Shown here: positions 3,401-46,914 of the stretch, one piece after another | Position numbering within the stretch: the stretch's first letter is position 1 | Layout of the letters: each line of letters begins with the position of its first letter | Source of the DNA: Ophelia neglecta | Taxonomy: Eukaryota | Assembly: GCA_965285935.1 (NCBI GenBank) | Contig: OZ260662.1 | Location: 70,246,001-70,310,000, forward strand | Length of the DNA stretch: 64,000 nucleotides | Direction of reading: 5' to 3' | Notes under the pieces: model-generated | The model's input: the letters and a program-made list of their open reading frames with translations, nothing else | Database searches by the model: none | What the model was told of the DNA's origin: nothing | Position numbers and translations under genes: made by a program

Positions 3401-5968
3401 AGGTGGTCAGAATATTAATATGGTATTTAAGGCAGGTTTTTATACTGTATGCTGTAATTACCATTGCTGTTTCTTGTCATGTATTCGCATTTTATCTGAT
3501 GCAACCAGTGCATTAAATTAATTTAAATCAGAGGGTTAAATTTTAACAGACTGCTTGTACTTTTACCTAGTAGATGACCAGGAAAGCTCTGATCAGAAGG
3601 TTTTGACAATGGCTGGCTTGTATGATATTTGGCAACCAAAGGATGTAAGTTTCTGGTTTTTCAGCACCCTATTTCCGAAAAAAGTATGGGGATTTGTATT
3701 GGGCCATGTCCTCTCCTCTGCCACCATGCTACCTCCACCATGGTTTTGGCTATAGCTCTGAAACCCTTTGGCCCACAGCATCTATTTTCAACAGGTATGG
3801 TATGTAGGCATCGGAATTGTTTTGTGATAGGTGGCCCCACCCTAGTGCCTATACTTATCCATTTTAGAGCAATATGGTGACAAAAGCTCATTTACAAGTT
3901 GCTCAAAAAGTATTAGAGTAGGCTGAATTGTACTAGGAGGATGCGCTATAGGCTTTTTACTTTAACTGATCAACTTTTGAAATCTGAATATAAATAGTTA
4001 TAAAAAGTCATATTTTTTGCTTTTCTCAATTCTTGCCATTTCATGCAATTTCAAGTGTTTTTTTTTTGGGGGGGAGGGCGGGTCTCAAACTTTTTTTTGG
4101 CAAAATGTACAAAAGTTTTATTTTTCATCCCATTTCATGTGATATCCATTGTTTGGAGGGAAGAAAAATATTGGGGGGGGGGGGATGTCTGTATCTGGGA
4201 CCCATTTTTGTTTTGACTATGCCAGGAGTGATTTTGCAACAGACCAGTTAATTATCCCTTTCAAATGGTGGGGGGCTTGCATTTCTAAACGCTTTGTTGC
4301 TTGTTAACCTGTCAGATATCATTCATTTGAATAGTTCATTAAAATGTCTTTTACATATACATGTATATGGCAACAAGTGATATGTGTATTTATAAATTGT
4401 ATCCAGGGTGGTGCTCCTTTATACAGCTACTCTATCATCACCGTTGATGCCCACAAGAAAATATCTTGGCTTCACCATAGAATGCCAGTAAGTATTGTGC
4501 TTTGTCTTAACTTTCTGTGATACATTTCCATTAAAATTGTTTAATCTAATTATGTATATGTAAAATTGATATGGATTATTCTTCACATACTGGTGAACAA
4601 AACTATGACATTTCATTGTCTAGTAACACTAAAAATAGCACATAGATAGAAAATGTGCAGATTCTTAAGTCAGACATTTTGAAAAAATTAATACTTAATA
4701 ATTTGTCGTCTAGTCTATGTAGTATTATTATAAGATATTAAACAACAACAAAAAACTCTTCTTAAATATAATAACCCTTTAGACACAGGGATGTCATGCA
4801 ACCAGTAATGATAATTTGAATTTTGGACAGTGTAGATTTTTTTCAGGCGATTCTAAATGGGGAAAAGGAAGTCAATGAATGGCTAGACTCTGGAACTGTG
4901 CCATTGTCAAAGGTAACTGAACTACATGATACTAGCATTGTGTTTATCAACCAGAATTGCTCACAAGCTTTTGCCATACCCCCAATTTTCAATGACAAAA
5001 GAAATATAAGGGCATTAAAACCACATTCTTGGAATTTGTAATGACCCTATCCTTTTTCCCAATATTGGGAGCATGTGAGAAACTGTAGGCTGTAATTCTA
5101 ATGGTGCCCATGAGTTTGAACATTGGTCTGCCCCTTGTAAGTCAAATGAAAAACAATACTTGTGTCCTTTATTTCAGCAAGTAGAGCAAAGATTATGTAC
5201 TTGAATAAATTTCAAGCATAATTTTACACGCAACACACAACATGGCATGGTTCTACAAATATTAATTTTTTCAGGCAGTAAAGCTGATTAGGTCACGTGA
5301 CTGTATACAGCAGCACCCAGTGTCCACTGTGGTCAATTCTTCCAGGAACAAAACCCCAGACTGCATTAAACCTATTGACTTAGAGTAAGTACAGTGCATG
5401 TATATGTAATGAACCTATACTGCTAATAAATTTGACCGTGACTATATTTTTAAAGGAAAAGGTTAATTTATCCATATCCTATTTATCCCAAGTGCTCTCA
5501 TGATCTAATGATTTACAGTGTGTGTACATGAAGCCTAGCTTAGAGCTTGTTTGAATGTTGCCACAACTCCAAGGTGCCTGCAAGCCAGGTTTGCTGCTGC
5601 CTCACTCTGTCTAGGTTCAACTAATTTCATGAAAGATATTTTATTCTTGTTGCATCTGCATGTTATGAAATGGAAATTTACTTCCCTCAAACTAGTCTAA
5701 AACCATATTTAAACTGTATGATTTGCAACAGTCTCAACTGATATTCTTAGTGATATACTCAGGGGTCCAAGCCAGGCTAACATAACTTTGAAGTTTAACC
5801 ATTACCATGCAAACTTATTACTAAAACAGGTTTTTTTCATGCAGGAAACAAAAGAGGAAAGCGCAAGCCAGTAGTAATCTGATGAAAGCTTGGCTTAGTA
5901 AGGGGACAAAGAGGCCATCAGATAAGGAGGAGAAAGACACCCCGAACAAAAAACCCAAGCACACATAG
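473..5968 (+). CDS. HMCES: Abasic-site processing protein HMCES (SRAP domain), 9 coding exons, ~328 aa
   Basis: Exons read with GT-AG boundaries and matching phases: 473-492, 1674-1811, 2431-2682, 3093-3214, 3571(or 3574)-3644, 4407-4487, 4847-4912, 5275-5384, 5845-5968 (987 nt, TAG). Translation has the SRAP hallmarks: MCGRTAC (catalytic Cys2), SYNIAPGSHTPV, MHWGLVPHW, NARSD, RCVILCEGYFEW, KQPYYI, MAGLYDIW, YSYSIITVDA, WLHHRMPAIL, HPVSTVVNSSRN and C-terminal LMKAWL. Confidence 0.96.
3269..3447. mobile_element. Degenerate Tc1/mariner-type MITE in HMCES intron
   Basis: TA-CAGT...ACTG-TA termini with internal repeated GGTGGTC/GGTCTG motifs; a related partial copy is at ~37248-37420. Confidence 0.5.
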
Positions 5969-9008: not shown

Positions 9009-12000
9009 GAAAGTGCCGAGAGCCAGCAGTGTTTGTAGGCCTACTCGCGATATTTGCTGCGCGTAGCTCGAGCTTTAGATCCAATGGTAACAATCTCTAA
9101 GCAAAGGGTTTTTTTTACCAAATCTCGCAAATCAAGCTTTACTCCTGGCAAGGGTCTGTTTTTCACACTAAATAGCTGATTTTCAGAATAAAAATGTAAG
9201 TAGAAGATTTCAGTATGAAAATGCAAGTAGAAGAACAGTGTAATCTCCTTGATATGTATATAGTGTTGCTATAGGAAAGGCAGTCCTCTCCTGGTATGTT
9301 TTCATACTAAGGATGTTTTTGTCACATTTCCCTAACTAATGGTATCCCTTTTTCGCTAGCCAGTGATATGGGTACGAAACCTGCTGCTGCAAAATGTTGA
9401 AAAGTACCTGAAATTTTAATATAATCAACTGCTTTCTAGGCCAAAGGTGTTTTTGTTCTTGTTCCATGCTATATTTGAAATAAGGACTGCAAAGATGTCT
9501 GTTTGTTTTATGTTGTTTCAATTCATATCAAAATATTTGAAATTATTGACTTAAGTGACAAATTTTATATTGTTTAATCATACAAGGTCTTTAAATGTCT
9601 ACATAATTTTTAATTATCTTTTTAATTTTTTTCATTTGTTTTTAAAATTTAATAATATCAGCCTGTATATATGTTTTACCACTTGATTATAATCTTGGAA
9701 TATTAACTAGGTCTACCTTTCTTTTGCAGGTCAAAAGTATTGGGCTGCTGTCGCAGTTTTGCAGGAAAGTATTATGATTTAACTTTGTTGTCTTTGGTCT
9801 TTTCGTTGCGCGTTATTTATATTAATTTGATGATAAGAGCCATATTTAAGGGCAATATTGTCCCGAGTCTATTCTATAGTTTAAAATTTGCTCCGCATAT
9901 TACTATGATTTATGAATTTAATTTTACCAGCTGATATTCATGTTATATGTGTTTTTGGTTTTTCATCATAGCTTTCAAATAAACTATCAATTCTTTTATT
10001 GGTATAAATTCCTCACATTGATATCATCATTATGAGCTTTGAACTATTCAGTTTAACAATTACCATATTTATTATCATTTATGCTTGTTTAATTGTTGTA
10101 AAGCTCATCGGGAGGAAGTTTTAAACTATTGAATACAGTGGGGCAAATATCAAAAAAACCTTTGCTTAAATATATTATTAAAATAAATAATACGTAATGA
10201 AGAGACCAAAGACAACAAAGTGATATTTTTCCACCATTGCCATATTAAAAGCTGGTGTCTTGTCATTTATTTGAATAATTTCTTGATATTGATATCATCA
10301 TTTTAACCTTTAAATGATTCAGATTAGCAATTTTTGTATTATTCTATCATTTCTGCTTGATTATTCGTATATAACCTTCTATACTATAAATATAATGTGT
10401 TACTTTGATATTACCAGCTGATTTCCATGTTATATCTGTGCTAGGTTTGTTTTATCATTGGTTTCAAAAAAGATAGTATTTATTGTCCAATTGATTAACA
10501 TTTTATATTGAATTATCTATTAAGTATAATATTGAATACTATTTAATGTTAATAAGGATTTGAACATTCATATATTTTTTTACAATTATTAGATGGTTCA
10601 AATATTTTCAAAGGGTCTAGCATTTCATGTGCATTTAATTGTAACAATTAAGACTAGGAAAATCCACCTTACTTTTGTGGTGTCCAAGGTGATTTCGCCA
10701 CCCTTTGATTGCAGGCAAGTATTTCGCTTTTGATTTCATTGTCATTAGTATTTTTTTTTAAACTTAGTTCTTAGTTTAAGCTCATATTTTTTCGTAGTTT
10801 TATTTAATTTTAGCTTCTTGAACTATTTAATTATCTTAAAGTACCTCACATTTTTATTATAATTAGGGTTCGAATAAAACCAGCTGATTTCTAGTTCTTA
10901 GGGGTTCTTAGTTCTTGTTCCATGTTATCTTTGAAATAAGAACTGTAAAGATGTCTGTTTGTTTTAATTTGTTTAAATTCATATCAAAATATTTGAAATT
11001 ATTGACATAAATAACCATTTTTATAATGTTTGTCATACCAGTTATCTTAATATCTACATTGTTTTTGTTGGCGATTCTATTTTGTATTTCCTTTTAAAAT
11101 TTACTTACATCGGCTTGTTTATTTGTTTTACCACCTAATGTGCCTTGATTGTAATCATGGAATATTAACAATGTCTACCTCTCTTTTGCAGGTCAAAAGT
11201 CTTGGGCTGCTGTCGGAGTTTAGCTGGAAAGTATCATGATTTTACTTTGTTGTCTTTGGTTTTTTGGTTGCGAATTTTTTATTTTAATTTGATAAATATA
11301 GCCTTTTCTTAGAGCAATATTGTGCCCAGTCTATTCTATAGTTTAAAGTTTTCTCCGCTTATTTCTGTGATTTATGACGTTAATTTCACCAGCTGATATG
11401 CATGTTATATATGTTTTATGTTTTTTCCATCATAGCTTTCAAATAAACTATCAATTCTTTTATTGGTATAAATTCTTCACATTAATATCATCATTATAAG
11501 CTTTGAACTATTCAGTTTAACAATTACCATATTTATTATCATTTATGCTTGTTTAATTGTTTTAAAGCTCATCGGGAGGAAGTTTTAAACTATTGAATAC
11601 AGTGGGGCAAATATCAAAAAAACCTTTGCTTAAATATATTATTAAAATAAATAATACGTAATGAAGAGACCAAAGACAAAAAAGTGATATTTTTCCACCA
11701 TTGCCATATTACAAGCTGGTGTCTTGTCATTTATTTGAATAATTTCTTGATATTGATATCATCATTTTAACCTATAAATGATTCAGTTTAGCAATTTTTG
11801 TATTATTCTATCATTTCTGCTTGATTATTCGTATATAACCTTCTATACTATAAATATAATGTGTTACTTTGATATTACCAGCTGATTTCCATGTTATATC
11901 TGTGTTAGGTTTGTTTTATCATTGGTTTCAAAAAAGATAGTATTTATTGTCCAATTGATTAACATTTTATATTGAATTATCTATTAAGTATAATATTGTA

Positions 12001-15000
12001 TACTATTTAATGTTAATAAGGATTTGAACATTCATATAATTTTTTACATATATTAGATTGTTGAAATATTGTCAAAGGGTGTAGCATTTCATGTGCATTT
12101 AATTGTAATAATTTAGACTAGGAAATTCCACCTTACTTTTGCGGTGTCCAAGGTGATTTCGACACCCTTTGATTGCAGGCAAGTATTTCGCTTTTGATTT
12201 CATTGTCATTGGTATTTTACTTTAAACTTAGTACTTAATTTAAGCTCATATTTTTTCGTAGTTTTATTTTAATTTTAGATTCTTGAACTATTTAATTATC
12301 TTAAAGTACCTCACATTTTTATTATAATTAGGGTTCGAAAAAAACCAGCTGATTTCTAGTTTATATGGGTTCTTAGTTCTTGTTCTATGTTATCTTTGAA
12401 ATAAGAACTGTAAAGATGTCTGTTTGTTTTAATTTTGTTTAAATTCATATCAAAATATTTGAAATTAATGACCTAAATGACCATTTTTATAATGTTTGTC
12501 ATACCAGTTATCTTAATATCTACATTGTTTTTGTTGGCGATTCTATTTTGTATTTCCTTTTAAAATTTACTTACATCGGCTTGTTTCTTTGTTTTACCAC
12601 TTAATGTGCCTTGATTGTAATCATGGAATATTAACAATGTCTACCTCTCTTTTGCAGGTCAAAAGTCTTGGGCTGCTGTCGGAGTTTAGCTGGAAAGTAT
12701 CATGATTTTACTTTGTTGTCTTTGGTTTTTTGGTTGCGAATTATTTATTTTAATTTGATAAATATAGCCTTTTCTTAGAGCAATATTGTGCCCAGTCTAT
12801 TCTATAGTTTGAAGTTTTCTCCGCTTATTTCTGTGATTTATGACGTTGATTTCACCAGCTGATATGCATGTTATATATGTTTTATGTTTTTTCCATCATA
12901 GCTTTCAAATAAACTATCAATTCCTTTATTGGTATAAATTCTTCACATTGATATCATCATTATAAGCTTTGAACTATTCAGTTTAACAATTACCATATTT
13001 ATTATCATTTATGCTTGTTTAATTGTTTTAAAACTCATCGGGAGGAAGTTTTAAACTATTGAATACAGTGGGGCAAATATCAAAAAAACCTTTGCTTAAA
13101 TATATTATTAAAATAAATAATACGTAATGAAGAGACCAAAGACAACAAAGTGATATTTTTCCACCATTGCCATATTACAAGCTGGTGTCTTGTCATTTTT
13201 TTGAATAATTTCTTGATATTGATATCATCATTTTAACCTATAAATGATTCAGTTTAGCAATTTTTGTATTATTCTATCATTTCTGCTTGATTATTCGTAT
13301 ATAACCTTCTATACTATAAATATAATGTGTTACTTTGATATTACCAGCTGATTTCCATGTTATATCTGTGTTAGGTTTGTTTTATCATTGGTTTCAAAAA
13401 AGATAGTATTTATTGTCCAATTGATTAACATTTTATATTGAATTATCTATTAAGTATAATATTGAATACTATTTAATGTTAATAAGGATTTGAACATTCA
13501 TATAATTTTTTACATATATTAGATTGTTGAAATATTGTCAAAGGGTGTAGCATTTCATGTGCATTTAATTGTAATAATTTAGACTAGGAAAATCCACCTT
13601 ACTTTTGCGGTGTCCAAGGTGATTTCGACACCCTTTGATTGCAGGCAAGTATTTCGCTTTTGATTTCATTGTCATTGGTATTTTTTTTAAACTAAGTACT
13701 TAATTTAAGCTCGCATTTTTTCGTAGTTTTATTTTAATTTTAGATTCTTGAACTATTTAATTATCTTTAAGTACCTCACATTTTTATTATAATTAGGGTT
13801 CGAATAAAACCAGCTGATTTCTAGTTTATAGGGGTTCTTAGTTCTTGTTCCATGTTATCTTTGAAATAAGAACTGTAAAGATGTCTGTTTGTTTTAATTT
13901 GTTTAAATTCATATGAAAATATTTAAAATTATTGACCTAAATAACCATTTTTATAATGTTTGTCATACCAGTTATCTTAATATCTACATTGTTTTTGTTG
14001 GCGATTCTATTTTGTAATTCCTTTTAAAATTTACTTACATCGGCTTGTTTATTTGTTTTACCACTTAATGTGCCTTGATTGTAATCATGGAATATTAACA
14101 ATGTCTACCTCTCTTTTGCAGGTCAAAAGTCTTCGGCTGCTGTCGGAGTTTAGCTGGAAAGTATCATGATTTTACTTTGTTGTCTTTGGTTTTTTGGTTG
14201 CGAATTTTTTATTTTAATTTGATAAATATAGCCTTTTCTTAGAGCAATATTGTGCCCAGTCTATTCTATAGTTTAAAGTTTTCTCCGCTTATTTCTGTGA
14301 TTTATGACGTTAATTTCACCAGCTGATATGCATGTTATATATGTTTTATGTTTTTTCCATCATAGCTTTCAAATAAACTATCAATTCTTTTATTGGTATA
14401 AATTCTTCACATTAATATCATCATTATAAGCTTTGAACTATTCAGTTTAACAATTACCATATTTATTATCATTTATGCTTGTTTAATTGTTTTAAAGCTC
14501 ATCGGGAGGAAGTTTTAAACTATTGAATACAGTGGGGCAAATATCAAAAAACCTTTGCTTAAATATATTATTAAAATAAATAATACGTAATGATGAGACC
14601 AAAGACAACAAAGTGATATTTTTCCACCATTGCCATATTACAAGCTGGTGTCTTGTCATTTATTTGAATAATTTCTTGATATTGATATCATCATTTTAAC
14701 CTATAAATGATTCAGTTTAGCAATTTTTGTATTATTCTATCATTTCTGCTTGATTATTCGTATATAACCTTCTATACTATAAATATAATGTGTTACTTTG
14801 ATATTACCAGCTGATTTCCATGTTATATCTGTGTTAGGTTTGTTTTATCATTGGTTTCAAAAAAGATAGTATTAATTGTCCAATTGATTAACATTTTATA
14901 TTGAATTATCTATTAAGTATAATATTGAATACTATTTAATGTTAATAAGGATTTGAACATTCATATAATTTTTTACATATATTAGATTGTTGAAATATTG

Positions 15001-18000
15001 TCAAAGGGTGTAGCATTTCATGTGCATTTAATTGTAATAATTTAGACTAGGAAAATCCACCTTACTTTTGCGGTGTCCAAGGTGATTTCGACACCCTTTG
15101 ATTGCAGGCAAGTATTTCGCTTTTGATTTCATTGTCATTGGTATTTTTTTTAAACTTAGTACTTAATTTAAGCTCATATTTTTTCGTAGTTTTATTTTAA
15201 TTTTAGATTCTTGAACTATTTAATTATCTTAAAGTACCTCACATTTTTATTATAATTAGGGTTCGAATAAAACCAGCTGATTTCTAGTTTATAGGGGTTC
15301 TTAGTTCTTGTTCCACGTTATCTTTGAAATAAGAACTGTAAAGATGTCTGTTTGTTTTAATTTGTTTAAATTAATATCAAAATATTTGAAATTATTGACC
15401 TAAATAACCATTTTTATAATGTTTGTCATACCAGTTATCTTAATATCTACATTGTTTTTGTTGACGATTCTATTTTGTAATTCCTTTTAAAATTTACTTA
15501 CATCGGCTTGTTTATTTGTTTTACCACTTAATGTGCCTTGATTGTAATCATGGAATATTAACAATGTCTACCTTTCTTTTGCAGGTCAAAAGTCTTGGGC
15601 TGCTGTCGGAGTTTAGCTGGAAAGTATCATGATTTTACTTTGTTGTCTTTGGTTTTTTGGTTGCGAATTTTTTATTTTAATTTGATAAATATAGCCTTTT
15701 CTTAGAGCAATATTGTGCCCAGTCTATTCTATAGTTTAAAGTTTTCTCCGCTTATTTCTGTGATTTATCACGTTAATTTCACTAGCTGATATGCATGTTA
15801 TATATGTTTTATGTTTTTTCCATCATAGCTTTCAAATAAACTATCAATTCTTTTATTGGTATAAATTCTTCACATTGATATCATCATTATAAGCTTTGAA
15901 CTATTCAGTTTAACAATTACCATATTTATAAACATTTATGCTTGTTTAATTGTTTTAAAGCTCATCGGTAGGAAGTTTTAAACTATTGAATACAGTGGGG
16001 CAAAATATCAAAAAAACCTTTGCTTAAATATATTATTAAAATAAATAATACGTAATGAAGAGACCAAAGACAACAAAGTGATATTTTTTCACCATTGCCA
16101 TATTACAAGCTGGTGTCTTGTCATTTATTTGAATAATTTCTTGATATTGATATCATCATTTTAACCTATAAATGATTCAGTTTAGCAATTTTTGTATTAT
16201 TCTATCATTTCTGCTCGATTATTCATATATAACCTTCTATACTATAAATATAATGTGTTACTTTGATATTACCAGCTGATTTCCATGTTATATCTGTGTT
16301 AGGTTTGTTTTATCATTGGTTTCAAAAAAGATAGTATTTATTGTCAAATTGATTAACATTTTATATTGAATTATCTATTAAGTATAATATTGAATACTAT
16401 TTAATGTTAATAAGGATTTGAACATTCATATAATTTTTTACATATATTAGATTGTTGAAATATTGTCAAAGGGTGTAGCATTTCATGTGCATTTATTTGT
16501 AATAATTTAGACTAGGAAAATCCACCTTACTTTTGCGGTGTCCAAGGTGATTTTGACACCCTTTGATTGCAGGCAAGTATTTCGCTTTTGATTTCATTGT
16601 CATTGGTATTTTTTTTTAAACTTAGTACTTAATTTAAGCTCATATTTTTTCGTAGTTTTATTTTAATTTTAGATTCTTGATCTATTTAATTATCTTAAAG
16701 TACCTCACATTTTTATTATAATTAGGGTTCGAATAAAACCAGCTGATTTCTAGTTTATAGGGGTTCTTAGTTCTTGTTCCATGTTATCTTTGAAATAAGA
16801 ACTGTAAAGATGTCTGTTTGTTTTAATTTGTTTAAATTCATATGAAAATATTTGAAATTATTGACCTAAATAACCGTTTTTATAATGTTTGGTTTAAACA
16901 TATTTATTTTTTCTATGTTGGATCTTACAAAAGCCTATGGCTTAAAATCGGTAATTTCCAACATATCAACATACAGAACATTAGGTTAAACAGCATGCAA
17001 TGAATGAGGTGAGGTGATGGGATGAAGGGCGACATGAGGTGGATGTACATCAAGCACGCATGTATATATGAAGTGCTACAAACAGTTGAGGAAATGGAAA
17101 TATAATGTTTGTCATACCAGTTATCTTAATATCTACAATGTTTTTGTTGGCGATTCTATTTTGTAATTCCTTTTAAAATTTACTTACATCGGCTTGTTTA
17201 TTTGTTTTACCACTTAATGTGCCTTGATTGTAATCATGGAATATTAACAATGTCTACCTCTCTTTTGCAGGTCAAAAGTCTTGGGCTGCTGTCGGAGTTT
17301 AGCTGGAAAGTATCATGATTTTACTTTGTTGTCTTTGGTTTTTTGGTTGCGAATTATTTATTTTAATATGATAAATATGGCCTTTTCTTAGAGCAATATA
17401 GTGCCCAGTCTATTCTATAGTTTAAAGTTTTCTCCGCTTATTTCTGTGATTTATGACGTTAATTTCACCAGCTGATATGCATGTTATATATGTTTTATGT
17501 TTTTTCCATCATAGCTTTCAAATAAACTATCAATTCTTTTATTGGTATAAATTCTTCACATTGATATCATCATTATGAGCTTTGAAATATTCAGTTTAAC
17601 AATTACCATATTTATTATCATTTATGCTTGTTTAATTGTTGTAAAGCTCATCGGGAGGAAGTTTTAAACTATTGAATACAGTGGGGCAAATATCAAAAAA
17701 ACCTTTGCTTAAATATATTATTAAAATAAATAATACGTAATGAAGAGACCAAAGAAAACAAAGTGATATTTTTTCACCATTGCCATATTATAAGCTGGTG
17801 TCTTGTCATTTATTTGAATAATTTCTTGATATTGATATCATCATTTTAACCTATAAATGATTCAGTTTAGCAATTTTTGTATTATTCTATCATTTCTGCT
17901 TGATTATTCGTATATAACCTTGTATACTATAAATATAATGTGTTACTTTGATATTACCAGCCGATTTCCATGTTATATCTGTGTTAGGTTTGTTTTATCA

Positions 18001-21000
18001 TTGGTTTCAAAAAAGAAAGTATTTATTGTCCAATTGATTAACATTTTATATTGAATTATCTATTAAGTATAATATTGAATACTATTTAATGTTAATAAGG
18101 ATTTGAACATTCATATAATTTTTTACATATATTAGATTGTTGAAATATTGTCAAAGGGTGTAGCATTTCATGTGCATTTAATTGTAATAATTTAGACTAG
18201 GAAAATCCACCTTACTTTTGCGGTGTCCAAGGTGATTTCGACACCCTTTGATTGCAGGCAAGTATTTCGCTTTTGATTTCCTTGTCATTGGTATTTTTTT
18301 TAAACTTAGTACTTAATTTAAGCTCATATTTTTTCGTAGTTTTATTTTAATTTTAGATTCTTGATCTATTTAATTATCTTAAAGTACCTCACATTTTTAT
18401 TATAATTAGGGTTCGAATAAAACCAGCTGATTTCTAGTTTATAGGGGTTCTTAGTTCTTGTTCCATGTTATCTTTGAAATAAGAACTGTAAAGATGTCTG
18501 TTTGTTTTAATTTGTTTAAATTCATATCAAAATATTTGAAATTAATGACCTAAATGACCATTTTTATAATGTTTGTCATACCAGTTATCTTAATATCTAC
18601 ATTGTTTTTGTTGGCGATTCTATTTTGTAATTCCTTTTAAAATTTACTTACATCGGCTTGTTTATTTGTTTTACCACTTAATGTGCCTTGATTGTAATCA
18701 TGGAATATTAACAATGTCTACCTTTCTTTTGCAGGTCAAAAGTTTTGGGCTGCTGTCGGAGTTTAGCTGGAAAGTATCATGATTTTACTTTGTTGTCTTT
18801 GGTTTTTTGGTTGCGAATTATTTATTTTAATTTGATAAATATAGCCTTTTCTTAGAGCAATATTGTGCCCAGTCTATTCTATAGTTTAAAGTTTTCTCCG
18901 CTTATTTCTGTGATTTATGACGTTAATTTCACTAGCTGATATGCATGTTATATATGTTTTATGTTTTTTCCATCATAGCTTTCAAATAAACTATCAATTC
19001 TTTTATTGGTATAAATTCTTCACATTGATATCATCATTATAAGCTTTGAACTATTCAGTTTAACAATTACCATATTTATTATCATTTATGCTTGTTTAAT
19101 TGTTTTAAAGCTCATCGGTAGGAAGTTTTAAACTATTGAATACAGTGGGGCAAATATCAAAAATACCTTTGCTTAAATATATTATTAAAATAAATAATAC
19201 GTAATGAAGAGACCAAAGACAACAACGTGATATTTTTTCACCATTGCCATATTATAAGCTGGTGTCTTGTCATTTATTTGAATAATTTCTTGATATTGAT
19301 ATCATCATTTTAACCTATAAATGATTCAGTTTAGCAATTTTTGTATTATTCTATCATTTCTGCTTGATTATTCATATATAATCTTCTATACTATAAATAT
19401 AATGTGTTACTTTGATATTACCAGCTGATTTCCATGTTATATCTGTGTTAGGTTTGTTTTATCATTGGTTTCAAAAAAGATAGTATTTATTGTCCAATTG
19501 ATTAACATTTTATATTGAATTATCTATTAAGTATAATATTGAATACTATTTAATGTTAATAAGGATTTGAACATTCATATAATTTTTTACATATATTAGA
19601 TTGTTGAAATATTGTCAAAGGGTGTAGCATTTCATGTGCATTTAATTGTAATAATTTAGACTAGGAAAATCCACCTTACTTGTGCGGTGTCCAAGGTGAT
19701 TTCGACACCCTTTGATTGCAGGCAAGTATTTCGCTTTTGATTTCATTGTCATTGGTATTTTTTTTTTTAACTTAGTACTTAATTTAAGCTCATATTTTTT
19801 CGTAGTTTTATTTTAATTTTAGATTCTTGATCTATTTAATTATCTTAAAGTACCTCACATTTTTATTATAATTAGGGTTCGAATAAAACCAGCTGATTTC
19901 TAGTTTATAGGGGTTCTTAGTTCTTGTTCCATGTTATCTTTGAAATAAGAACTGTGAAGATGTCTGTTTGTTTTAATTTGTTTAAATTCATATGAAAATA
20001 TTTGAAATTATTGACCTAAATAACCATTTTTATAATGTTTGTCATACAAGTTATCTTAATATCTACATTGTTTTTGTTGGCGATTCTATTTTGTAATTCC
20101 TTTTAAAATTTACTTACATCGGCTTGTTTATTTGTTTTACCACTTAATGTGCCTTGATTGTAATCATGGAATATTAACAATGTCTACCTCTCTTTTGCAG
20201 GTCAAAAGTCTTGGGCTGCTGTCGGAGTTTAGCTGGAAAGTATCATGATTTTACTTTGTTGTCTTTGGTTTTTTGGTTGCGAATTATTTATTTTAATTTG
20301 ATAAATATAGCCTTTTCTTAGAGCAATATTGTGCCCAGTCTATTCTATAGTTTAAAGTTTTCTCCGCTTATTTCTGTGATTTATGACGTTAATTTCACCA
20401 GCTGATATGCATGTTATATATGTTTTATGTTTTTACCATCATAGCTTTCAAATAAACTATCAATTCTTTTATTGGTATAAATTCTTCACATTGATATCAT
20501 CATTATGAGCTTTGAACTATTCAGTTTAACAATTACCATATTTATTATCATTTATGCTTGTTTAATTGTTGTAAAGCTCATCGGGAGGAAGTTTTAAACT
20601 ATTGAATACAGTGGGGCAAATATCAAAAAAACCTTTGCTTAAATATATTATTAAAATAAATAATACGTAATGAAGAGACCAAAGACAACAAAGTGATATT
20701 TTTCCACCATTGCCATATTACAAGCTGGTGTCTTGTCATTTATTTGAATAATTTCTTGATATTGATATCATCATTTTAACCTATAAATGATTCAGTTTAG
20801 CAATTTTTGTATTATTCTTTCATTTCTGCTTGATTATTCTTATAAAACCTTCTATACTATAAATATAATGTGTTACTTTGATATTACCAGCTGATTCCCA
20901 TGTTATATCTGTGTAAGGTTTTGTTTTATCATTGGTTTCAAAAAAGATAGTATTTATTGTCCGATTGATTAATATTTTATATTAAATTATCTATTAAGTA

Positions 21001-23189
21001 TAATATTGAATACTATTTAATGTTAATAAGGATTTGAACATTCATATAATTTTTTACATATATTAGATGGTTAAAATATTGTCAAATGGTGTAGCATTTC
21101 AGGTGCATTTAATTTTAACAATTTAGACTAGGAAAATCCACCTTACTTTTGCGGTGTCCAAGGTGATTTCGCCACCTTTTGATTGCAGGCAAGTATTACG
21201 CTTTTGTTTTCATTGTCATTGGTATTTCTTTTAAAATTTAGTATTTAATTTAAGCTCATATTTTTTCGTAGTTTTAGTTTAATTTTGGATTCTTGAACTA
21301 TTTAGTTATCTTAAAGTACCTTACATTTTTTTATAATAAGGGTTCTAATAAAACCAGCTGATTTCTAGTTGTAAGGGGTTCTCAGTTCTTGTTCCATGTT
21401 ATCTTTGAAATAAGAACTGTAAAGATGTCTGTTTGTTTTAATTTGTTTAAATTCATATCAAAATATTTGAAATTATTGACATTAATAACAATTTTTATAT
21501 TGTTTTGTCATACCAGTTATCTTTATATCTACATTGTTTTTGTTGGCGATTCCATTTTGTTATTCCTTTTAAAATTTATTTACATCAGCTTGTTTAATTG
21601 TTTTACCCCTTTATGTGTCTTGATTGTAATCATGGAATATTAACAATGTCTACCTTTCTTTTGCAGGTCAAAAGTCTTGGGCTGCTTTCGGACTTTAGCA
21701 GGAAAGTATCATGATTTTACTTTGTTGTCTTTGGTTTTTTGGTTTCGAATTATTTATTTTAATTCGATATATATAGCCTTGTGTTAGGGCAATATTGTCC
21801 CCAGTCTATTCTATTGTTTAAAATTTCCTCCACTTATTACTGTGATTTATAACTTTAATTTCACCAGCTGATATGCATGTTATACATTATGTTTTATGTT
21901 TTTCCATCATAGCTTTCAAATAAAATATCAATTCTTTTATTGGTATAAATTCTTCACATTGATATCATCATTATAAGCTTTGAACTATTCAGTTTAACAA
22001 TAACTATATTTACTATCATTTATGCTTTTTTAATTGTTTTAAAACTCATGGGAGGAAGTTTTAAACTATTGAATAGAGTAGGGCAAATATCAAAAAACCT
22101 TTGCTTTAATATATTATTAAAATAAATAATACGTAATGAAGAGACCAAAGACAACAAAGTGAAATTTGTCAGCCATTGCTATAATATAAGCTCGTGTCTT
22201 TTCATTTATTGGTATAATTTCTTGATATTGATATCATCATTGTAACTTATAAATGATTCAGTTTAGCAATTTCTGTATTATTCTATTCATTCTGCTTGAT
22301 TATTCGTATAAAAACCTTTTGGACTTTAAATATAATGTGCTACTTTGATGTTACCAGCTGATTTTCATGTTATATCAGTGTTAGGTTTTGTTTTTTCATT
22401 AGTTTCAAATAAGATAGTATTTATTGCCCGATTGATTAATATTTTATATTGAATTATCTTTTAAGTATAATATTGAATACTATTTAATGTTAATAAGGAT
22501 TTGAACATTCATATAATTTTTTACATATATAAGATGATTACAATATTGTCAAAGGGTGTAACATTTCTTGTGCCTTTAATTTTAGCAATTTATATTATAG
22601 GAAAATCCACATTACATTTGCGGTGTCCTAGGTGATTTCGCCACCTTATGATTGCAGGCAAGTATTTCCCTTTGGTTTTTTTGTCATTGGTATTTTCTGT
22701 TTTTTAAACTTAGAATTCAGTTAAGTTTTTCGTAGTTTTATTTTAATTTTGGATTCTTGAACTGTTCAATTGTTTTAAAGTACCTCAGATTTTTGTTATA
22801 ATTAGGGTTCTAATAAAACCAGCTGATTTCTAGGTCTTAGGAGGTCTTTGTTCTTGAGGAGGTCTTTGTTCTTGTTCCATGTTATCTTTGAAATATGAAC
22901 TGTAAAGATATCTGTTTGGTTTAATTTGTTTAAATTCGTATCAAAACATTTGAAATTATTGACCTAATAAACAATTTTTATATTGTTTAATCAGACAAGT
23001 TGTTCGATTATCTGCATTGTTTTTAGTTGAATAGACTGGGGACAATATTGTCCTGTTTTGGAATTCATTTTAAATGTTTAATTGTTTTACCACTTGGTGT
23101 GCCTTGATTGTAATCTTGGAATACTGACAATGTCTACCTTTATTTTGCAGGTCAAAAGTCTTGGGCTGCTATCGGAGTTTTGCTGGAAA
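9009..23189 (+). ncRNA. Putative multi-exon spliced transcript (lncRNA or repeat-peptide gene) running through the tandem array
   Basis: Every unit keeps exon A (39 nt; polypyrimidine+cag acceptor, AAA|gtat donor) and exon B (57 nt; tag acceptor, CAG|gcaagt GC donor). Unique upstream exon-like pieces with short introns: 9009-9086, ending 9195, 9275-9293, 9360-9403. No expression data available. Confidence 0.5.
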
Positions 23190-23345
23190 GTATCACGAGT
23201 CTGTTATTATTACAATAATATACAGTATTATTATAATATTACCATCTGATGAGTGTTTTGTATTTCCATGCTATATTTTTTTTTAAAGCAACGTTTTCTA
23301 TTTATTTTAATTTGTTCAAATTCGTATCAAAATATTTAAAATTCG
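9400..23345 (+). repeat. Tandem array of ~1,464-bp units (9 full units plus partial ends)
   Basis: Anchor tttgcag|GTCAAAAGT recurs at 9730, 11192, 12658, 14122, 15585, 17271, 18735, 20201, 21667, 23151 (spacings 1462-1466, one 1686 due to an insertion, last 1484). Core units are nearly identical; terminal units are more diverged. Confidence 0.98.
16892..17100 (-). mobile_element. 5'-truncated non-LTR retroelement 3' end inserted into one array unit
   Basis: 209-bp sequence absent from the other units, flanked by an 11-bp direct repeat TATAATGTTTG (16881-16891 and 17101-17111). On the minus strand it ends with stem-loop atgttgga...tccaacat, then AATAAA and ...tttaaac. Confidence 0.8.
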
Positions 23346-27034: not shown

Positions 27035-30000
27035 CTACTGTGCTTTGGCATTGAGTCTTCCCTGTTTGGCGTTACCAATATTTGTTCGCTGTATTATGTA
27101 TGGCCAGAGACTGCTTGGCAATGAAACAGGTGATGTCTCTTCACTGTTAGTGTTGTCCCTGTGTACAAATACAAGAATATTATTAGCCACAGGAATGTAG
27201 ATAATTCAGCTTCAAATGTCAAGAAGTATTTGTGTTTGAAAGGAAACATGTAAGCCTATATGGAAATACTTTGATAGAAACAATGAAAGAATGTAATTTA
27301 ATATGATAATGTTAATACCACAAATAAAAAGGAAAGCAAAATTGATATGCTTTATTTATTAAATGAAAGATTTCATCTTAAAAGATAAAATGTGTGAAGG
27401 AAGCAAACAAAAGATTTGGTCTTGTGATCCTCAAAAATTCCCGAATAAATCCATCGCAAGATTGACTGTAGGGTATTGTGTGACTAGTGGTCGTGATTGG
27501 CAACCATTGTGATATCAATCCTGGTGACCTGTGACCAATCATACTTTTAATCTAACCCTACAACTGCTCACACAATCAGCCAAAGCCCAGTAGTGGCAAT
27601 GCCCTCCTGAAGTGCCCCCCAACCTCCCTCTCCTATTCTCGCATCCGGTTGGCATATTTGCTATACAATGACTACCTCTGAATCCAGGCACACCCAGAAT
27701 TGTGCTTTCTTCTCTTCTTGTTCTTGTTTATCTGCCGGAACAGTACAGTGGCGACAAGAGCACTCAGCTCTTGTTGTTGCTCCCTTTGCAGCCTGACCAA
27801 CATGAGATAAAGTCTTTTTGGTGGCACTGGTGCATATGCTATAGCAATCCTCTTTGGGGTTGAAGTGCACAGTGACTTTAACTCCATGGCTTGCTCTATA
27901 TATTCCATGGGGGCTACCTAGGGAAATTTGGGAATATGAGGGTTATGGTTGGAATTTGAGGAATATGACAGGTGGCCCCACCTAACGGCAGGTGGCACAT
28001 CCAGTTGCACAACTAATCGTGCAACTGTTTCACCTGCGATCATGCAAGACTAGTGTTACGACCATGCAAGACTGTCTACAATTTGGAACTCCCAGGTCAG
28101 AAATTTTGAACATGACCAACTATGCTGCAACTGATTTTGCTTTGGCAAACCTCCACTACCTCCCGGACCAGGCTCCACTCTATTTACAACATCTAATGAT
28201 TTGAGCAGTTTTTGGTTGCAATCAGTTGTGTCTGGTGTGGCTGTGGCTGTAGAAATATATATGTACAAATATCAGTCAAAACTCAAAAATAACAGAATAG
28301 GTCATCTTACCATATAACAGTTTGTGTATCTTCTGTAGAGCATTCCATCTGGGCATCAATGCTGTACAGGTTGATTCTCATGGAATCCTGGCAGGCAGCT
28401 GGGCCCAGGAGGGAAGCCTTGTTGAAGAGGTCATTGGCCATCCAAAAGCTTGGCATACGAGGATACATGTCCCCATTGTCCTCTGGCATATGAAACCCTA
28501 GCAGTTGAAGCAATTTGAGAAAGTGCTTGTTCTTAAGCCATCAGACTGAATTCTGTAAAGGCAACCAGTGGTAGGGACTTCCCCAGTGCTGAAAAATATT
28601 GGATAGAATTAAATGAGGTTAAATATGAAACCCTCTACCATGGCTAGCCATTAAAAGCCATAAGAAATTAAAAGAGATTAAAAGCCAGTGAGTCCTCACT
28701 GTCTCGCATCGTATCAATTGATTGTCTGAGGAGCAGTGTTCTCAGTTTACACACTGTTGCTTTGCCCTCTCTTGTCTTTTCTCTTTTTAACCTTTTGGTT
28801 TCTCAGGATAATCAATTGAACACATAATATATTTGCAAAACACTTCAAAACAAAGAAAGAAAGACAGGGTAAACCTCTGCAATGTTCCTCATCTAAAACC
28901 AACAGTTATAATGATTTCTTGAGTCTAAGATCTATGTATTGTTTCTGTTGCCTGCCTTACCAAGATACCCATAAAACTATTCTCAAGGTGAAGCTAATAA
29001 CCAAGTTTCACATAATCATTTTCAAAGAAAATAGGCTAATACACTGAACCATAAAGCTCCAGCTAGATGTAAATGTATGAAACTGATGGCTAGACTGGCA
29101 AAAGCAAGTGGCTCATTCTAGTCTCACAACTGCAACTCAATAAGGTGCAAGAATTGTGGTTAACTAAAGGTTCTCAATGTAGTTCTGTGCTCTAGCGCTT
29201 AAAACAAATGCAGAAATAATTATTTTTGTGGTTTGACCTTGAAAATGACACCAAGGTAAAATTTGAAAACAAATTTGATAAAATGACCAAGATTTTCTTT
29301 CCCAAGGTGTTCCAATGCTGACCTAGGTTGTAACTATTAAACTGAAAGCAGACATCTTGCATATAATGATGTGACCTTGAACTGAAACATCAAGGTCAAG
29401 TGATAACTTGATAAGATCCCCAAAGAGAAAACCTGATAAGAACCCCAAAATAATCATTTCTATTGGCTTCCAGTGTTGATCTAGGTGTTAGTTGTTAAGT
29501 TAAAGGCAGAAATCCTAAATATGGTATTGTGACCTTTAAAATGGACATCAACAGCAAATTTGAGAACAATATAAGACAACCAAATATGCATTTCTATAGA
29601 TTTCCAATAATGATCTGGATTCTAGCTGTTAAATCACGATATAAGTGATTTGACTTTGAAAAGAGACACCAAGATCAAATTTAAGAACTCGGTAAAACAC
29701 ACAAAATATGCAAATCTATAACCTGCCAATGTTGATCTAGGTTCTATCTCCTATAAACAGAGTTGAAATCTTGATTGTAGTAATTTGACCTTGAAAATGG
29801 ACCCCAAGATCAGATTGATAAATTGATTTTATGCATAAGATATGATTTCTTATAGAATCACAATGCTGATCTTTGTTCTAACAGCTAAAGCTAAAATCTT
29901 GAATTTTATTGATCACACCTTGAGGATTAGGCCAAGGTTAATGAATGATGCCACAGGAATACTTAAATTATTCAGTCAATTGCTCAATTTAACTCCAACT

Positions 30001-33000
30001 TCCATTAAGATGGATGTTAATGTGTAAAACAACAAGGAGCAGGAGTAATTGCAGATGCCCCACCACCACCCACCTAAATCCAATGTGGGAGATTTGGGTT
30101 TGTTTATGTGGAAATGAATTGTTACCAAGAATAATTTTCGTTTCCTGCGCAAATTATGAATGGCTTAGGATGAATCAATAATTCCTATGTAAATTGTTAA
30201 GTAGATTTCATTAAAACCCTAATTAAGTGGATTTGACATATCAAACGGAAATGGCATAAATAAAATACCGGCATTATTTGACATAAGGACAACATTATTC
30301 AGGATATCGGGGCTTAGAAGGTTTAAGGGAGCTCTGAATGATTTTAGTTGGTGATTGGTTACACGACCAACATAAATCTGCTTTTGTAAAGACACAATGA
30401 TAGCTTATCTGCTTCTGGCAATTTCTATAGAATTCGCAGGGGAAACGTGCCCACATTCATCACATGTCACACACAATCACATGACAATGCACGATTTGAC
30501 TCCTATACATGATACATTGTTATCACTCTTCAATTCAATGAGTGTCACATGGTATTAATTGTCTCTAGCCAAGCCATGAAAATTCATGGGTGCCTGATGG
30601 GCTACCTGTGATCGTGGTGGGGTGCGCTGCTTGGTTGTGATGCCATAGGACAATACAAGAATACCTAGTGCCATGACTGTGACCTACCGCGCCCAATGTA
30701 AGCCAACCCAGCAATCCTCTGATGTGCCTGCTGCATTGAATACATAGGGCTAGCTTAAGGCTGGCAAACAACCTTGTCTTTTTTTGACATAATACAGAAC
30801 AATGAATTATCCAGCTTATGCCATAAATTATTACTAAGATTGAACTGGAATGATCCCTGACACAATCTGGGGTATGTTTAATTAAACCACTTTAGTAAAA
30901 GTTGTAAAATCAGTTATTTGAATTAATTTCAATTGAATTTTTTATTATTAACAGACGTTTAAAACATGTGGAGACCCTCAAATGTTTGTGCATAAAATAT
31001 GTTCTAAATATGTTTTTTGCACCTGTTATAAGACCAATGATTGTGAACAGACAAGCTGTTATTCAGCAGTCTTGGTTTGGTGGCACCAATTACCACATTC
31101 CTCCTTGGGGATGTGCTAAACTTTCACCAGGTACAAATATGTGTTAATAAATATTAACATCCCCTTAATATTGAATGTCATCATCCTTAAAATCAATTGC
31201 ACTGTCTGTGGCTGCATCCTTTGAACGAAAACATGTGACTTCTAGACACGCATGTAGTCAGCTTCCAACAAAGGAAAATTGTATGAAGACGTTGTGTGTC
31301 AAAAAATAATCAATTAGCTTAGGATTGATGATAGTAATTAATACATTTGATTGAACAATAGTAGGATAATAGCATGATGCCCTTCATGCAGATTATAACC
31401 CACCAGTAATGTTATCTATTTGTTCCAGCTTGACATTCTAATGACAGAATAACAACTAACAAAACAAGTCATCATTGCTCACACAGGTAGAAATTCCAAA
31501 TACACTATACCTTATGCTGATGGAGGATTTTAAGTCTGTGAAAACTCTTGTAACATGTCATTCCATTAAGCAAATGAGCTTAAGGGCCTCAGCGCACACT
31601 ACGCAAGCAATGACAAACACTCTTCATTTTTCCTTTACGTAAATAAAGTGTTTTTATTTCTAGTCATTTGATTTTCCTTTGGCAAGCACCCTCACCACTC
31701 ATTCTAGGTAAGAATACCTTGGCACCCAATAACCTAAAACAATAAAACTAGTCACCCCATACCAAAGCTTCTACATACTCTAAAGTGTTAGGCAGTTTTG
31801 TGTAGGAATTTCCCAGTTGCTAATTTATGGCTGATTTATAAGCGGTGGTGGAAGTAACCCATGAGGCAAAATTTTATTATGATTATATTCAGGGGGGAAG
31901 GAGCAAAAACTAATGATCTATCAAATATGAGTATTTTATATTTTTGCCATTGCTCTACTTTGGGTGAGAAGGGGGAGGATCTTCCCATATACATAAATGT
32001 ACATCCTCCCCTGACACATGCATATTCTTTGACCATCCCCCCTCATTGTCATCCCTTCTCAAAAATGGTTAGTTAATGTGTGATGGGATTTGTCCTCTAC
32101 AATGTCTCTTGGCATGGGGAATTTTATTCTTTTTTTTTCAGGAGTCCAGACCAGAATATTAAATCCTCTATTGCTTTAGCTGTTCAATTTTTAAAAGCTT
32201 TTTACCTTATTTACAAGAATTTTCAAGTACATGATAATAAATCGGTGACAAAGTGAGTGTCTAATGGGTGAAAATAAGGAAGTTTGTGGAGTTTCTAAAG
32301 AAACAATAAAGGATGCCTTTTCTGTAATAGCTACAGAGTGCAGCTCAATAGGGGGCCTTATATCCATATTGCTGATCTGATGCTATATTGACAGTGACCC
32401 TGTGCAATATGTAGTAACTCTCTCCTGTACAATATAGCTGCAATTCTGTGGCTATATCTGTAAAAGCTGTATCCAATAATTGCCATTTGCACATGTGCAT
32501 TAATAACTAATTGTACACCAACTTAATCAAATTAACACTGTTATGCTGAATCATATTCTTTCCATGGAGGAACAGCAAATACTGACAGGTGAATATTACC
32601 TTTGTCTTCTACCTGGTCTAATCAAAATTCAGTGATGATGCAAACATTAACATGGTTATGAATCAACGCCCTAGGGTGTCCATTAACTCTTAGATGTGCA
32701 GGTATACCATACCTAATCAGGCTAATAGTAGACATGTGTCATGCACATAAACCAGGTACAAAAGAAATAAAAAACGTGTGTTGGGCAAGGGAGATATATT
32801 CTTACAGGTACAAAAGAAAGCCACACCAGCACATATATAACACAATCAATATTGCCTACCTGTATAATGGAGAATTGTTGGCTCCGCTGGCTTTCCGCTG
32901 CAGTCAGTTAGATAGGACCCAGACTTCACAAAGCAGGCTTCCACCAATGTACCCTGTAACCAATGTACTAATTTGTCCTTCTTTGCCTCACACAGAATTT

Positions 33001-35795
33001 TAACACACTGATCTATAGTGGCATGTTCTATCTGATCTGATGGATCTTTTCTGTTTTGCCTCAATAAGTGATCTTCGCTACTAAATTGTATGTCTTGCAG
33101 TAAGCCATGCTTATGCAAGTGTTGCTCAACTTGTTTAATGCTCTTCTTAATGTTCAATGTGTTGAGTTCACTGACCACTTCAGAGAGTAAACGATCCGTG
33201 CTCATGGGCTTCTTCAGCTTGCTGTATAACATAAACAGTTCATCTTCCTCTTCCTGAGTCCAAGATGAATTTACCTCACTGTTACAGTCCTTCTTCTCAT
33301 CTGAGTCATCCTCCTTCAAGGCATTCATACCTTCCATTTCAAAGTCCAACCCACACAACAGTCTGATACAATCAAGTGAGTTAGCCTGGAGCTTACCCAG
33401 ACAGCTTTGGAGTATGTACTCCATTAGATCACAGCATTCAGGTGGAATGCAGTCCATCATGGGATTATCAAGAATGTTGAGGAAGTTCTGTACAATAGGT
33501 ATCTGAATGAGGGCTTCTGGACATTGGCAGTCTCCAGCAACATGGTGCATCATGGTGAAGACGCGGTCATTCAACTCTGCTGGATTTGTTTTGAAACCAT
33601 CCAAAATAGAGCTATACTTGAGCATGAGCTCCGATGTGCCAAAGTTCCTGACATGTTCTAGAATATCATAGTGCTTGTACTTTTCCCCCCAGGACATCAC
33701 CACATCAGTGATGAGAAGGAATTCATGGTTGGCCGTAACCACATCAATTAGATACTGCTTTCCATGAAGTTCTTGCTTGTAATGTCTGAGCAAGAGAACA
33801 AACAGAAGCCGAAGATCAGTCATTTGTATAATGGAATTCTGAAGTTTAGATAAATAGCGTCTATTGGCAGCTGATAATTTGTCACTGTGAAAATAGTTCA
33901 TAGATTGTAGAACTTGTAGAATGGCCACAACCGTAAGGTAGTTTTTTCTCACAGTCCCTAGGACTAACATGTTTCCTTCTTGGTGAGTATTGTTTTCAGT
34001 TGATTTTTTACATTCTTTGCTAATGTCCTCACAGCTAGTAACACTGAGGGAAACCAGTAAGCCAATGATATCTATGCTTAAACAATCCCTGCAAGGAAAC
34101 AGAAGAAATTATTACACTCAACAACACAGTAACATTTGCTTTGGTTCCTGGTTTATAATGGTTGCAATTAAGGAACTATTCATCATAATAGTTACATTTA
34201 TAAATTATTCATCACAGAATATCAACGACAGCAATTAATGAAGCTGCCAGCATATAATCCATTTCAAGGATTTCTTAACATTAGAATAACAAATGATCAG
34301 TTATGTAACAATACAACTAATATCTTGCATTTCAATGGACAACTGGACAGCAGGGGTAAGTATGAGATGGGGGAGGATATATTTTTATGGTTTCCTATTT
34401 ATGATGTTCATGGTAGAAATCATTTACAAGTAATTTCTGAAATATTACTTACTTGACATGCTGAAATGGGATGTCTAAGGTGTGGGCCAATTTGAGGAAA
34501 TACTGGACCAGCCACATGAAATAGTGGCCCTCTAGTTGATAGCGATTTTTCTTCTGGTTGACCAGCACAGCTTTCACAGATTTCAAAAGCTCTCCCCAGC
34601 CATTTTTGATGAATTCTCGGGCAAAATCGGACAACACCACACGCAGATGGCAAATCATATCTTTAAGAGAGATATTAGCCTCATTGGTAGTGTCATCATC
34701 CTCAAGTTTATTTCTGTTTTCCTCTTCTCCCAAAACATTCTTCATTCCCTCTTCCTTCTCAGCATGGCATTGTGGGGCAACAGCTTGGGTCTCACATTTA
34801 CCGAGAGAGGCTTTGCTAATGGCACGAGCCATTTCAGCATCTATGTCCATATCAACTTCTGTCTCATTGCAGGATGGTGAGCTCGTTCGTTCCTTGTCAT
34901 TATTCAGAGAAGTTTCACTTGGTTCCCCACAATTAACCGACTGACATGGTCCAGTGTTCTGTCCTCGGTTTTCTGGCTGGCCCAATCTGCCCTGATCACC
35001 GCTGTTTTTGATGTTACGATTGTGAGCTGATTTTGTCATTTCCCCACAGTTGTTCAAAGGACCCGGACCAAAATTAACACACCGCTTGTCCTTAAACAGC
35101 AAGGAGATCAGTTGAATAATAGAAACACACCAAAAGTCTCTGTGTTCAATTGTTAACATCTTAAAAAAGACGTCTTTCAAACCATGCTGAAACATTCCCT
35201 TAATTATTCTCATATTCATTGGTAGTTCATTGGCTGTTTCTGGATCCTGAATATACAGCAAGTTTCTGTAAAGGTATATGGAATAGTCTATCGCCTGGTA
35301 TGCTTGATCAGACAGTCCTTTATTAGGAAGTTGTAGATCTAGAAATATATGCTGCAGTTCTCCAAAGATAACCTTTGTCACTTGAGGATTGAGGAAGGCT
35401 TTTTTGGTTTTATATAACAGTTGATTAATTTCAGTAACTACTTCATGCAGACTTGGATGCTGATAATTCTCTGGAATCATCAAGCAATCTAAAGGCTGGC
35501 TCAAGTTGGCTAAGAGCTTCATTGACAGATAAAATATCTGATCAGTATCTACCTCACACTTATTTTCTTCAATGTGAAGCAGCAATGGAATGATACTCTT
35601 GTTAATGACATCAACAAATGCCAATCTTCTTCGCAGCGGTCTGGATATAGTATCTTCTTTTTCCAGAGATGTTGCAAGTTCCTGAAGAGTATCTACACAA
35701 GTATCAGCTATGATGAAGGACCCATCAGCTAATTCAATTCCAATACTGGCATCAACATAGCTCAGGCCATCAGCATTCATAATATATTGCTCCAT
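27035..35795 (-). CDS. tim: Timeless 1 (insect-type circadian TIM), 4 coding exons, frame disrupted in coding exon 3
   Basis: Coding exons 35795-34453, 34088-32860, 28588-28311, 27158-27035 with GT-AG boundaries and matching phases; acceptor of the first coding exon at 35948. Motifs resemble Drosophila TIM as I recall it: EDTISRPLRRRLAF, LANLSQPLDCL, EINQLLYKTKKAF, YRNLLYI, LSDFAREF, YFMWLVQYFLK, FTMMHHVAGD, SLPLVAF, LLGFHMPEDNGDMYPRMPSFW, terminal LPSSLWPYIIQR. Summed length 2974 nt is not a multiple of 3. Confidence 0.93.
29200..29950 (+). repeat. Degenerate ~135-bp tandem repeat (TGACCTTGAAA...CAAGGTCAAA family) in tim intron
   Basis: About six units with cores near 29233, 29371, 29529, 29649, 29784, 29915; same family as 44100-44880. 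Confidence 0.75.
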
Positions 35796-45701: not shown

Positions 45702-46013
45702 CTAATCCTTTAAGTAAACAAGCTGCCATATTGGGACTGCAGGGACTACTTTTCTGAGGTTAAGAAATATTTTGACAAGCCATGGTAATTGACAACTGGC
45801 TAGTTTTACTTTGACAAGTCTTTGCTGTTCCTCGAATGGAGGTAGTGGAGCACGTAGTTCAAGCTGTGACACTACGATGTCACATCTAGGATATCCCTGA
45901 AAACCAACCAAAAAACCCTCTTCCTCTGTCACATCTTTTATTCTTGCGTTTGACCACCTCCCCAACTCATCCACGGCCTGCACCCTACTTCCAACAATGA
46001 ATACTCCTGCCAT
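45702..46013 (-). CDS. Orphan Tudor/chromo-barrel-like ORF (probably a first coding exon or gene fragment)
   Basis: aaaATGG start at 46013; MAGVFIVGSRVQAVDELGRWSNARIKDVTEEEGFLVGFQGYPRCDIVVSQLELR fits the royal-family pattern F.VG..V.A.D..G.W..A.I......V.F.GY...D..V....LR; candidate acceptor ttaaccttcttccggtag before 46081. No downstream exons identified. Confidence 0.5.
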   Translation of the reverse strand: MAGVFIVGSRVQAVDELGRWSNARIKDVTEEEGFLVGFQGYPRCDIVVSQLELRAPLPPFEEQQRLVKVKLASCQLPWLVKIFLNLRKVVPAVPIWQLVYLKD

Positions 46014-46914
46014 TTTTAGGTCTACTCGCCACATCCAGCCATTGAATAATTGTGAATGATTGCGTCCGAATGTTTTTGTATCTACCGGAAGAAGGTTAAC
46101 CGCATGTGTGGTGCGTCGCCGTTAGAAAGTAGTTCCAGCCTCAAAGTTATCCCATTCTACCCGTGAATGATTCAAAGCGCCATTTATCGCAACCAATAAA
46201 TAGTTAGGATGATTCTTTATCCTTGGGTAGACTAAAAGTGCATTATTTTGCCTACGGTTAAATATTATCATTTACCCAGTAAAAATATTGACATGTATTC
46301 ATGCGCCCGAGTGTAGGCAGTGCTGGCAGTGTTGTTGTCAGTCCTATTTCAGGCAATTCTTGGTCGATTTTTGTGATTTAAAGTTGCACAGTTTTTATTT
46401 TTTAATCAACATTTTATATATTTAGTTTTCGAAGCGGAAAAACACATAATAAAATAAAGCAGAAATTGAGGCCAAGACAATCGGGATTGCTGTCATGCAC
46501 TGGCTCCGTGTACTATATAAAACACACAAAACCAAATCCCTTGGCGAATGACTTTTAAAAGTCACTTCTTTTTATTGAATTTCTAAATTTCTCTAACCCA
46601 ATTGCCTTTTAGAGAGATTGACAAACAAGGACAGAAACTATAGCCATCGTTCACATATTCTTTGATTATTAATTAAAGGGCGCCTAGCAATGGAGTTTTC
46701 TAGATTTTATATATAATCATGCGTATAAGCCCTATATAATAATCATAGTCTTCATGTGAAATGCTTTTATAATACAACAATGACTATAAAATAATTATCT
46801 AGTTTACCTGAAACAATTTTTGCTGATTTGGAGTTTCGTTTTTTAATAAATGCATCACAATAAATATGATGCCAGACAAGAAAACGATATGTTTGAGTAA
46901 GAGGAAAACAATTA

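Follow-up and report, generated by a model that had tools for sequence, protein, structure and literature searches.

A two-base frameshift in timeless1 of Ophelia neglecta is probably a local consensus error

A stretch of 64,000 nucleotides of the Ophelia neglecta assembly (contig OZ260662.1, positions 70,246,001 to 70,310,000; hereafter the window) harbors what is most likely an intact, single, four-exon timeless1 gene coding for a Drosophila-type TIM protein of 991 aa, with the error residing in the window consensus. As written in the window, the third coding exon is frameshifted and runs into a premature stop codon. An intact allele is present in public sequencing data, and its frame and spacing fit those of the Timeless family.

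Structure and identity of the timeless1 gene

The gene is located on the minus strand, and its model comprises the following coding exons:

34453..35795, minus strand: timeless1 coding exon 1, with the ATG at 35795 and the TIMELESS N-terminal domain; phase 2 at its end
32860..34088, minus strand: timeless1 coding exon 2, open, with homology matches; phase 1 at its end
28311..28588, minus strand: timeless1 coding exon 3, of 278 nt here versus 280 nt in the public runs; encodes the PAB domain
27035..27158, minus strand: timeless1 coding exon 4, the last, with a TAG stop ending at 27035

All exon junctions are of the GT-AG type, and exons 1, 2 and 4 are fully open (2,696 nt), as a sequence-only reading of the window had stated for the exons other than the third. 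Exon 1 encodes a Pfam TIMELESS N-terminal domain (PF04821; residues 29-243; E 2e-23), while the Timeless PAB domain (PF05029; profile positions 51-88; E 3.1e-9) was recognized in the frame downstream of the break in exon 3. The placement of exon 4 is based on a weak tblastn match of the C-terminus of protein P0003 (27121-27074; E 0.025), together with a fitting AG acceptor and phase. A long last exon, broken by indels at 27700-28270, was considered and rejected, as this stretch belongs to intron 3, with the last exon situated at 27158-27035.

The longer proteins matched by exon 2 all contain Timeless domains (11/11), and nine of the eleven are named as insect timeless. Its best match is the 995-aa protein P0003, which shares 46% identity over exon 2 and 42% over the whole model. 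The highest-ranking PDB match of the same exon is chain B of 8dd7, annotated as 'Protein timeless' (8dd7_B; E 5.3e-28), followed at a distance by a 'timeless homolog' (7pfo_K; E 1.1e-10). In a midpoint-rooted FastTree phylogeny of 30 rows, the model is placed within the TIM1 side (24 rows), which is separated from the 'timeless homolog' side (6 rows) with a support of 100. The domains, the PDB ranking and the placement in the tree therefore indicate that timeless1 is the right name for this gene. The N-terminal and PAB domains, as well as the spacing within the latter, are held in common with the Drosophila-type TIM1 proteins (8dd7 chain B, the insect proteins P0004-P0012 and the bivalve timeless-like proteins P0136 and P0139), although the named TIM1 proteins share only 24-30% amino acid identity with the model. 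By contrast, the TIMEOUT/TIM2 proteins and vertebrate 'timeless homolog' proteins (among them P0241 of Pecten and P0259 of Heptranchias) belong to the same superfamily but show distant similarity, and the 'timeless homolog' proteins, which are 1087-1510 aa in size, are set apart as a clade of their own (support 100) by a long branch of 1.47 changes per column.

In Drosophila, TIM functions in light entrainment, binds PER, is degraded in a CRY-dependent manner in the light and is rhythmically expressed. The role of TIM in nudibranchs is given as still to be determined in the relevant passage of one study (PMC6180908), while a passage of another describes full-length TIM candidates of marine zooplankton which carry both domains (PMC9939569).

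Several other features can be observed in the window. A gene encoding HMCES, with an SRAP domain, lies at 1674-5967 on the plus strand, tail to tail with timeless1 (35795-27035, minus strand). Eight of its exons were found, with 321 open codons and 65% identity to P0292, while a short first exon is absent from the model. P0292 and P0003, the nearest HMCES and TIM proteins respectively, may be encoded on one contig, which would represent a kept gene pair. A tandem array occupies positions 9418-23195 and consists of approximately 9.5 copies of an AT-rich unit of 1462-1484 bp (GC 26-29%), with anchors at 9735, 11197, 12663, 14127, 15590, 17276, 18740, 20206, 21672 and 23156. The inner copies are about 98% alike and one unit is lengthened to 1686 bp. 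The array was missed by TRF because of the period limit of that program, and a mitochondrial insertion, considered for the AT-rich 9-23 kb stretch, was rejected once the stretch was recognized as the array. At the other end of the window, a roquin gene (RING, ROQ and CCCH domains; 55402-63980, plus strand) comprises 13 exons with 2,736 nt open to the window end, including a 116-nt exon (62849-62964) that is required for phase and has no tblastn match. A 340-bp direct duplicate (62006-62309 / 62420-62758) is found within a roquin intron. Two inverted-repeat pairs, one of 202 bp at 89% (52446-52640 / 52899-53100) and one of 117 bp at 95% (53366-53482 / 53785-53900), resemble the ends of non-autonomous transposons. 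Finally, an open frame of 139 aa (45702-46121, minus strand), which has an ATG within it, reads like a real protein fragment.

The reading frame of exon 3 in the window and in public runs

The last base of exon 2 is 32860, in phase 1, and behind the AG acceptor exon 3 starts with base 28588. From this base the frame ends in FSLMA followed by TAA at 28535-28533, with the conserved continuation that starts LKNKHF in another frame, exactly the frameshift that the sequence-only reading had claimed. The sizes of about 875 and 991 aa which it gave for the broken and the repaired products proved exact, with timeless1 spliced as written yielding 875 aa and the version with two bases added 991 aa. Its placement of the stop upstream of the last intron likewise holds, since in the spliced model the TAA precedes the exon 3/4 junction by 222 nt.

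Three public runs (X1-X3), derived from one sample in one study and none of them recorded as RNA, contain this DNA, and their contigs were compared with the window over 27600-29250. In each of the three, a single contig spans 27963-29115 and has both extra bases. The affected sites are as follows:

28549..28550, minus strand: first missing base, in a T run that reads TT in the window versus TTT in the runs (an A inserted behind 28548, in 3/3 runs)
28533..28534, minus strand: second missing base, in an A run that reads AA in the window versus AAA in the runs (a T inserted behind 28532, in 3/3 runs), overlapping the apparent TAA

At both sites, the homopolymer is thus two bases long in the window and three in these independent data. 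The peptide that had been predicted from the addition of two bases is recovered, with phenylalanine (TTT) as its one unassigned residue, while the proposed site of the second addition has to be corrected, since this base falls in the A run at 28534-28533 and not in the pair of G residues.

Of 159 Timeless-like proteins, 75, selected with the restored model as the query, cover the exon 3 region and were aligned, the rest being fragments or not extending to it, and a profile of the PAB region was built from the homologues alone. The restored 991-aa protein aligns without gaps across the break site with all seven homologues tested, as does the full PAB domain of the run version, and the 18-residue span of the run version has the same length in 74 of the 75 homologues (19 residues in the other). 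The run version scores 98.8 bits against the profile, compared to 19.8 bits for the form as written. Repairs at a single site (nine one-base removals and ten additions of two bases at one place) also open the frame, but these 19 candidates score lower than the two-site version (87.1-93.0 bits) and are absent from the runs, and they were rejected, as was the skipping of exon 3, which leads to 878 aa in the wrong frame.

Outside the exon, the runs differ from the window by ten listed intronic SNPs (11-12 by another count), nearly all of which are common to the three runs. Furthermore, a 21-bp indel distinguishes window and runs at 28668-28688 in intron 2, and a 57-bp block at 27905-27963 in intron 3 is replaced by 72 other bases in the runs. 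On the basis of these SNPs, the 21-bp indel and the replaced block, the sampled animal carries another haplotype than that of the window, and the runs are probably not the source reads of the assembly. The share of window words found in the runs (0.67-0.71) adds no independent information, as the listed differences predict a value of 0.73. Repeats that belong to other parts of the genome accumulate over 27936-28060 and 28830-29250.

According to the part of its description that bears on alleles, the Logan resource collapses the alleles of a sample into one path in its contigs (PMC12424806), and site 28788, which differs between the runs, provides an example. For a sample heterozygous for the broken allele in balanced proportion, the computed chance that all three runs are resolved to the intact path is one in eight. 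A second contig over 28216-28663, including one with the broken version, was seen in none of the three runs, where contigs show presence and not absence. Given the other haplotype and the collapsed alleles, what the runs prove is the existence of an intact allele, and not the absence of a broken one from the assembled animal. A recent paralogue collapsed in the sample is not indicated, as the depth of the exon 3 contig is close to that of a window-identical neighbour (34.9 versus 32.8 in X2 and 11 versus 10.2 in X3, contig depth being a weak measure).

Sequence error and the alternatives to it

It is thus nearly certain that timeless1 has not been lost, and there is a strong case that the frameshift is a local error in the consensus of the window. 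The sequence-only reading had listed an assembly error among its options and had named reads with two additional bases as the result that would establish it, and both bases are present in all three runs. We infer that both bases are missing in error and that the short form is no real allele of the assembled animal. Two homopolymer runs of exon 3, each of three bases, would have been shortened by one base in the window consensus, and both losses would fall inside a patch of approximately 27700-28550 with a locally less accurate consensus. Such a patch may go back to a small number of long reads, or to long reads with poor correction.

Both losses in exon 3 are homopolymer contractions from three bases to two, 16 bases apart. 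Homopolymer indels are described as the main class of long-read errors in the sections of a paper on small genomes (PMC12007338), where one-base deletions in short runs likewise create a false frameshift and stop and so fragment genes, although there they occur genome-wide, whereas here the damage is limited to a single patch of an animal window that is clean elsewhere. The exon shows no substitution relative to the runs, where 3.2-3.8 would be expected from the rate in the introns (10-12 substitutions over 875 bp; P 0.02-0.04), and has therefore been under selection until now. At the indel share of the tandem array, two indels would arise before any substitution with a chance of about 0.01, and for another, independent indel to fall no more than 17 nt from the first the chance is likewise about 0.01. 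The adjoining part of intron 3 is rich in indels:

27963..28310, no strand assigned: indel-rich part of intron 3, 348 bp, with five small indels (1-2 bases) and four SNPs among the differences listed

This ratio of five indels to four SNPs compares to 41:358 in seven copy pairs of the tandem array (p 0.0013), with boundaries that were chosen post hoc. On the intron 2 side, where the boundaries are likewise post hoc, one small indel is found against six SNPs, which is in line with the array background (p 0.54). Of the nine small indels that were examined, seven have the shorter form in the window and the longer one in the runs. The excess of indels and the predominance of shorter forms are suggestive of a locally poor consensus at approximately 27700-28550. 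A contrast of transversions, for boundaries chosen after the data had been seen, was not significant (p 0.08).

Against an error it can be argued that the coding sequence elsewhere in the window reads open over about 6.4 kb (exons 1, 2 and 4 of timeless1, the 13 roquin exons and eight HMCES exons), so that the assembly is not noisy overall, and that the inner copies of the tandem array differ by only one or two indel events per 1.46 kb. Real slippage mutations likewise favour homopolymers. A real null allele, private to the assembled individual or of low frequency in a species that keeps a working allele, is the most serious alternative, if an unlikely one. The two bases would have been removed by one compound slippage event or by two close deletions, and the transcript would be subject to nonsense-mediated decay (NMD) or yield a protein of 875 aa that is truncated within the PAB domain. 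This is consistent with the distinct haplotype of the window and with the error-free state of its other 6.4 kb of coding sequence in three genes, and a stop located 222 nt before the last junction satisfies the usual rule, by which NMD acts on stops more than 50 nt before the last junction. It requires, however, two one-base losses 16 bases apart in an exon otherwise free of substitutions, both of them homopolymer contractions with more small indels close by in intron 3, and the broken version occurs in no contig of the three runs, which record presence and not absence. That a natural timeless1 null allele segregates beside an intact one in this non-insect invertebrate thus appears doubtful. 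A literature search, with subscription journals mostly outside its scope, established no published natural tim null or loss.

The loss-of-function allele that the sequence-only reading had offered as a further option is compatible with the data in this private form, while loss at the level of the species is contradicted by the intact frame. Because all three runs carry both bases and an open frame, such a loss is practically excluded. A fixed and recent loss in the lineage of the window would demand that the animal behind the runs belonged to a very closely related sister taxon or population, for which the intronic difference of approximately 1.1-1.4% leaves formal room, but the only sample at hand has an intact allele, the 2,976 nt of coding sequence show no other lesion, and exon 3 is identical to that of the runs apart from the two bases, so that we consider this highly improbable. 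A disabling change fixed in the species, by which a unitary pseudogene is defined, was not found in the one sample available, where the frame is intact in 3/3 runs. Neither relaxed selection nor further lesions were detected, exon 3 having no substitution, compared with 10-12 over 875 bases of intron, and the other exons being open. Least probable of all is a real lesion bypassed by splicing, in which 32860 would be joined to an acceptor within exon 3:

28497..28499, minus strand: candidate cryptic acceptor, an in-frame AG at 28499-28498 and the first base after it, giving 960 aa

The AG before 28497, predicted to drop about 30 aa, does exist and lies in frame, with nine pyrimidines in the 14 upstream bases versus ten for the true acceptor, and a second in-frame AG before 28482 would give 955 aa. 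Use of the AG before 28497 would nonetheless remove 31 residues that include the most conserved columns of the PAB core (Pro in 73 and Phe in 66 of the 75 homologues), thereby halving the profile score (48.4 versus 98.8 bits), and it is superfluous for an intact allele. The proposed rescue is therefore unneeded as well as damaging.

Meaning for clock-gene comparisons

Loss of timeless1 throughout the species is ruled out with near certainty by the intact allele in another sample, and the locus probably represents an ordinary timeless1 gene with a sequence error. If the assembly were annotated as it stands, timeless1 would appear truncated or absent, and a false loss would be introduced into comparisons of clock-gene content. 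Should the assembled animal really carry the allele, this would represent a natural knockout allele of a clock gene, the role of which beyond insects is presented as unsettled in the passage on TIM in PMC6180908. Carriers of such a null allele, if it is true, would allow a direct test of the importance of TIM1 for the clock outside insects.
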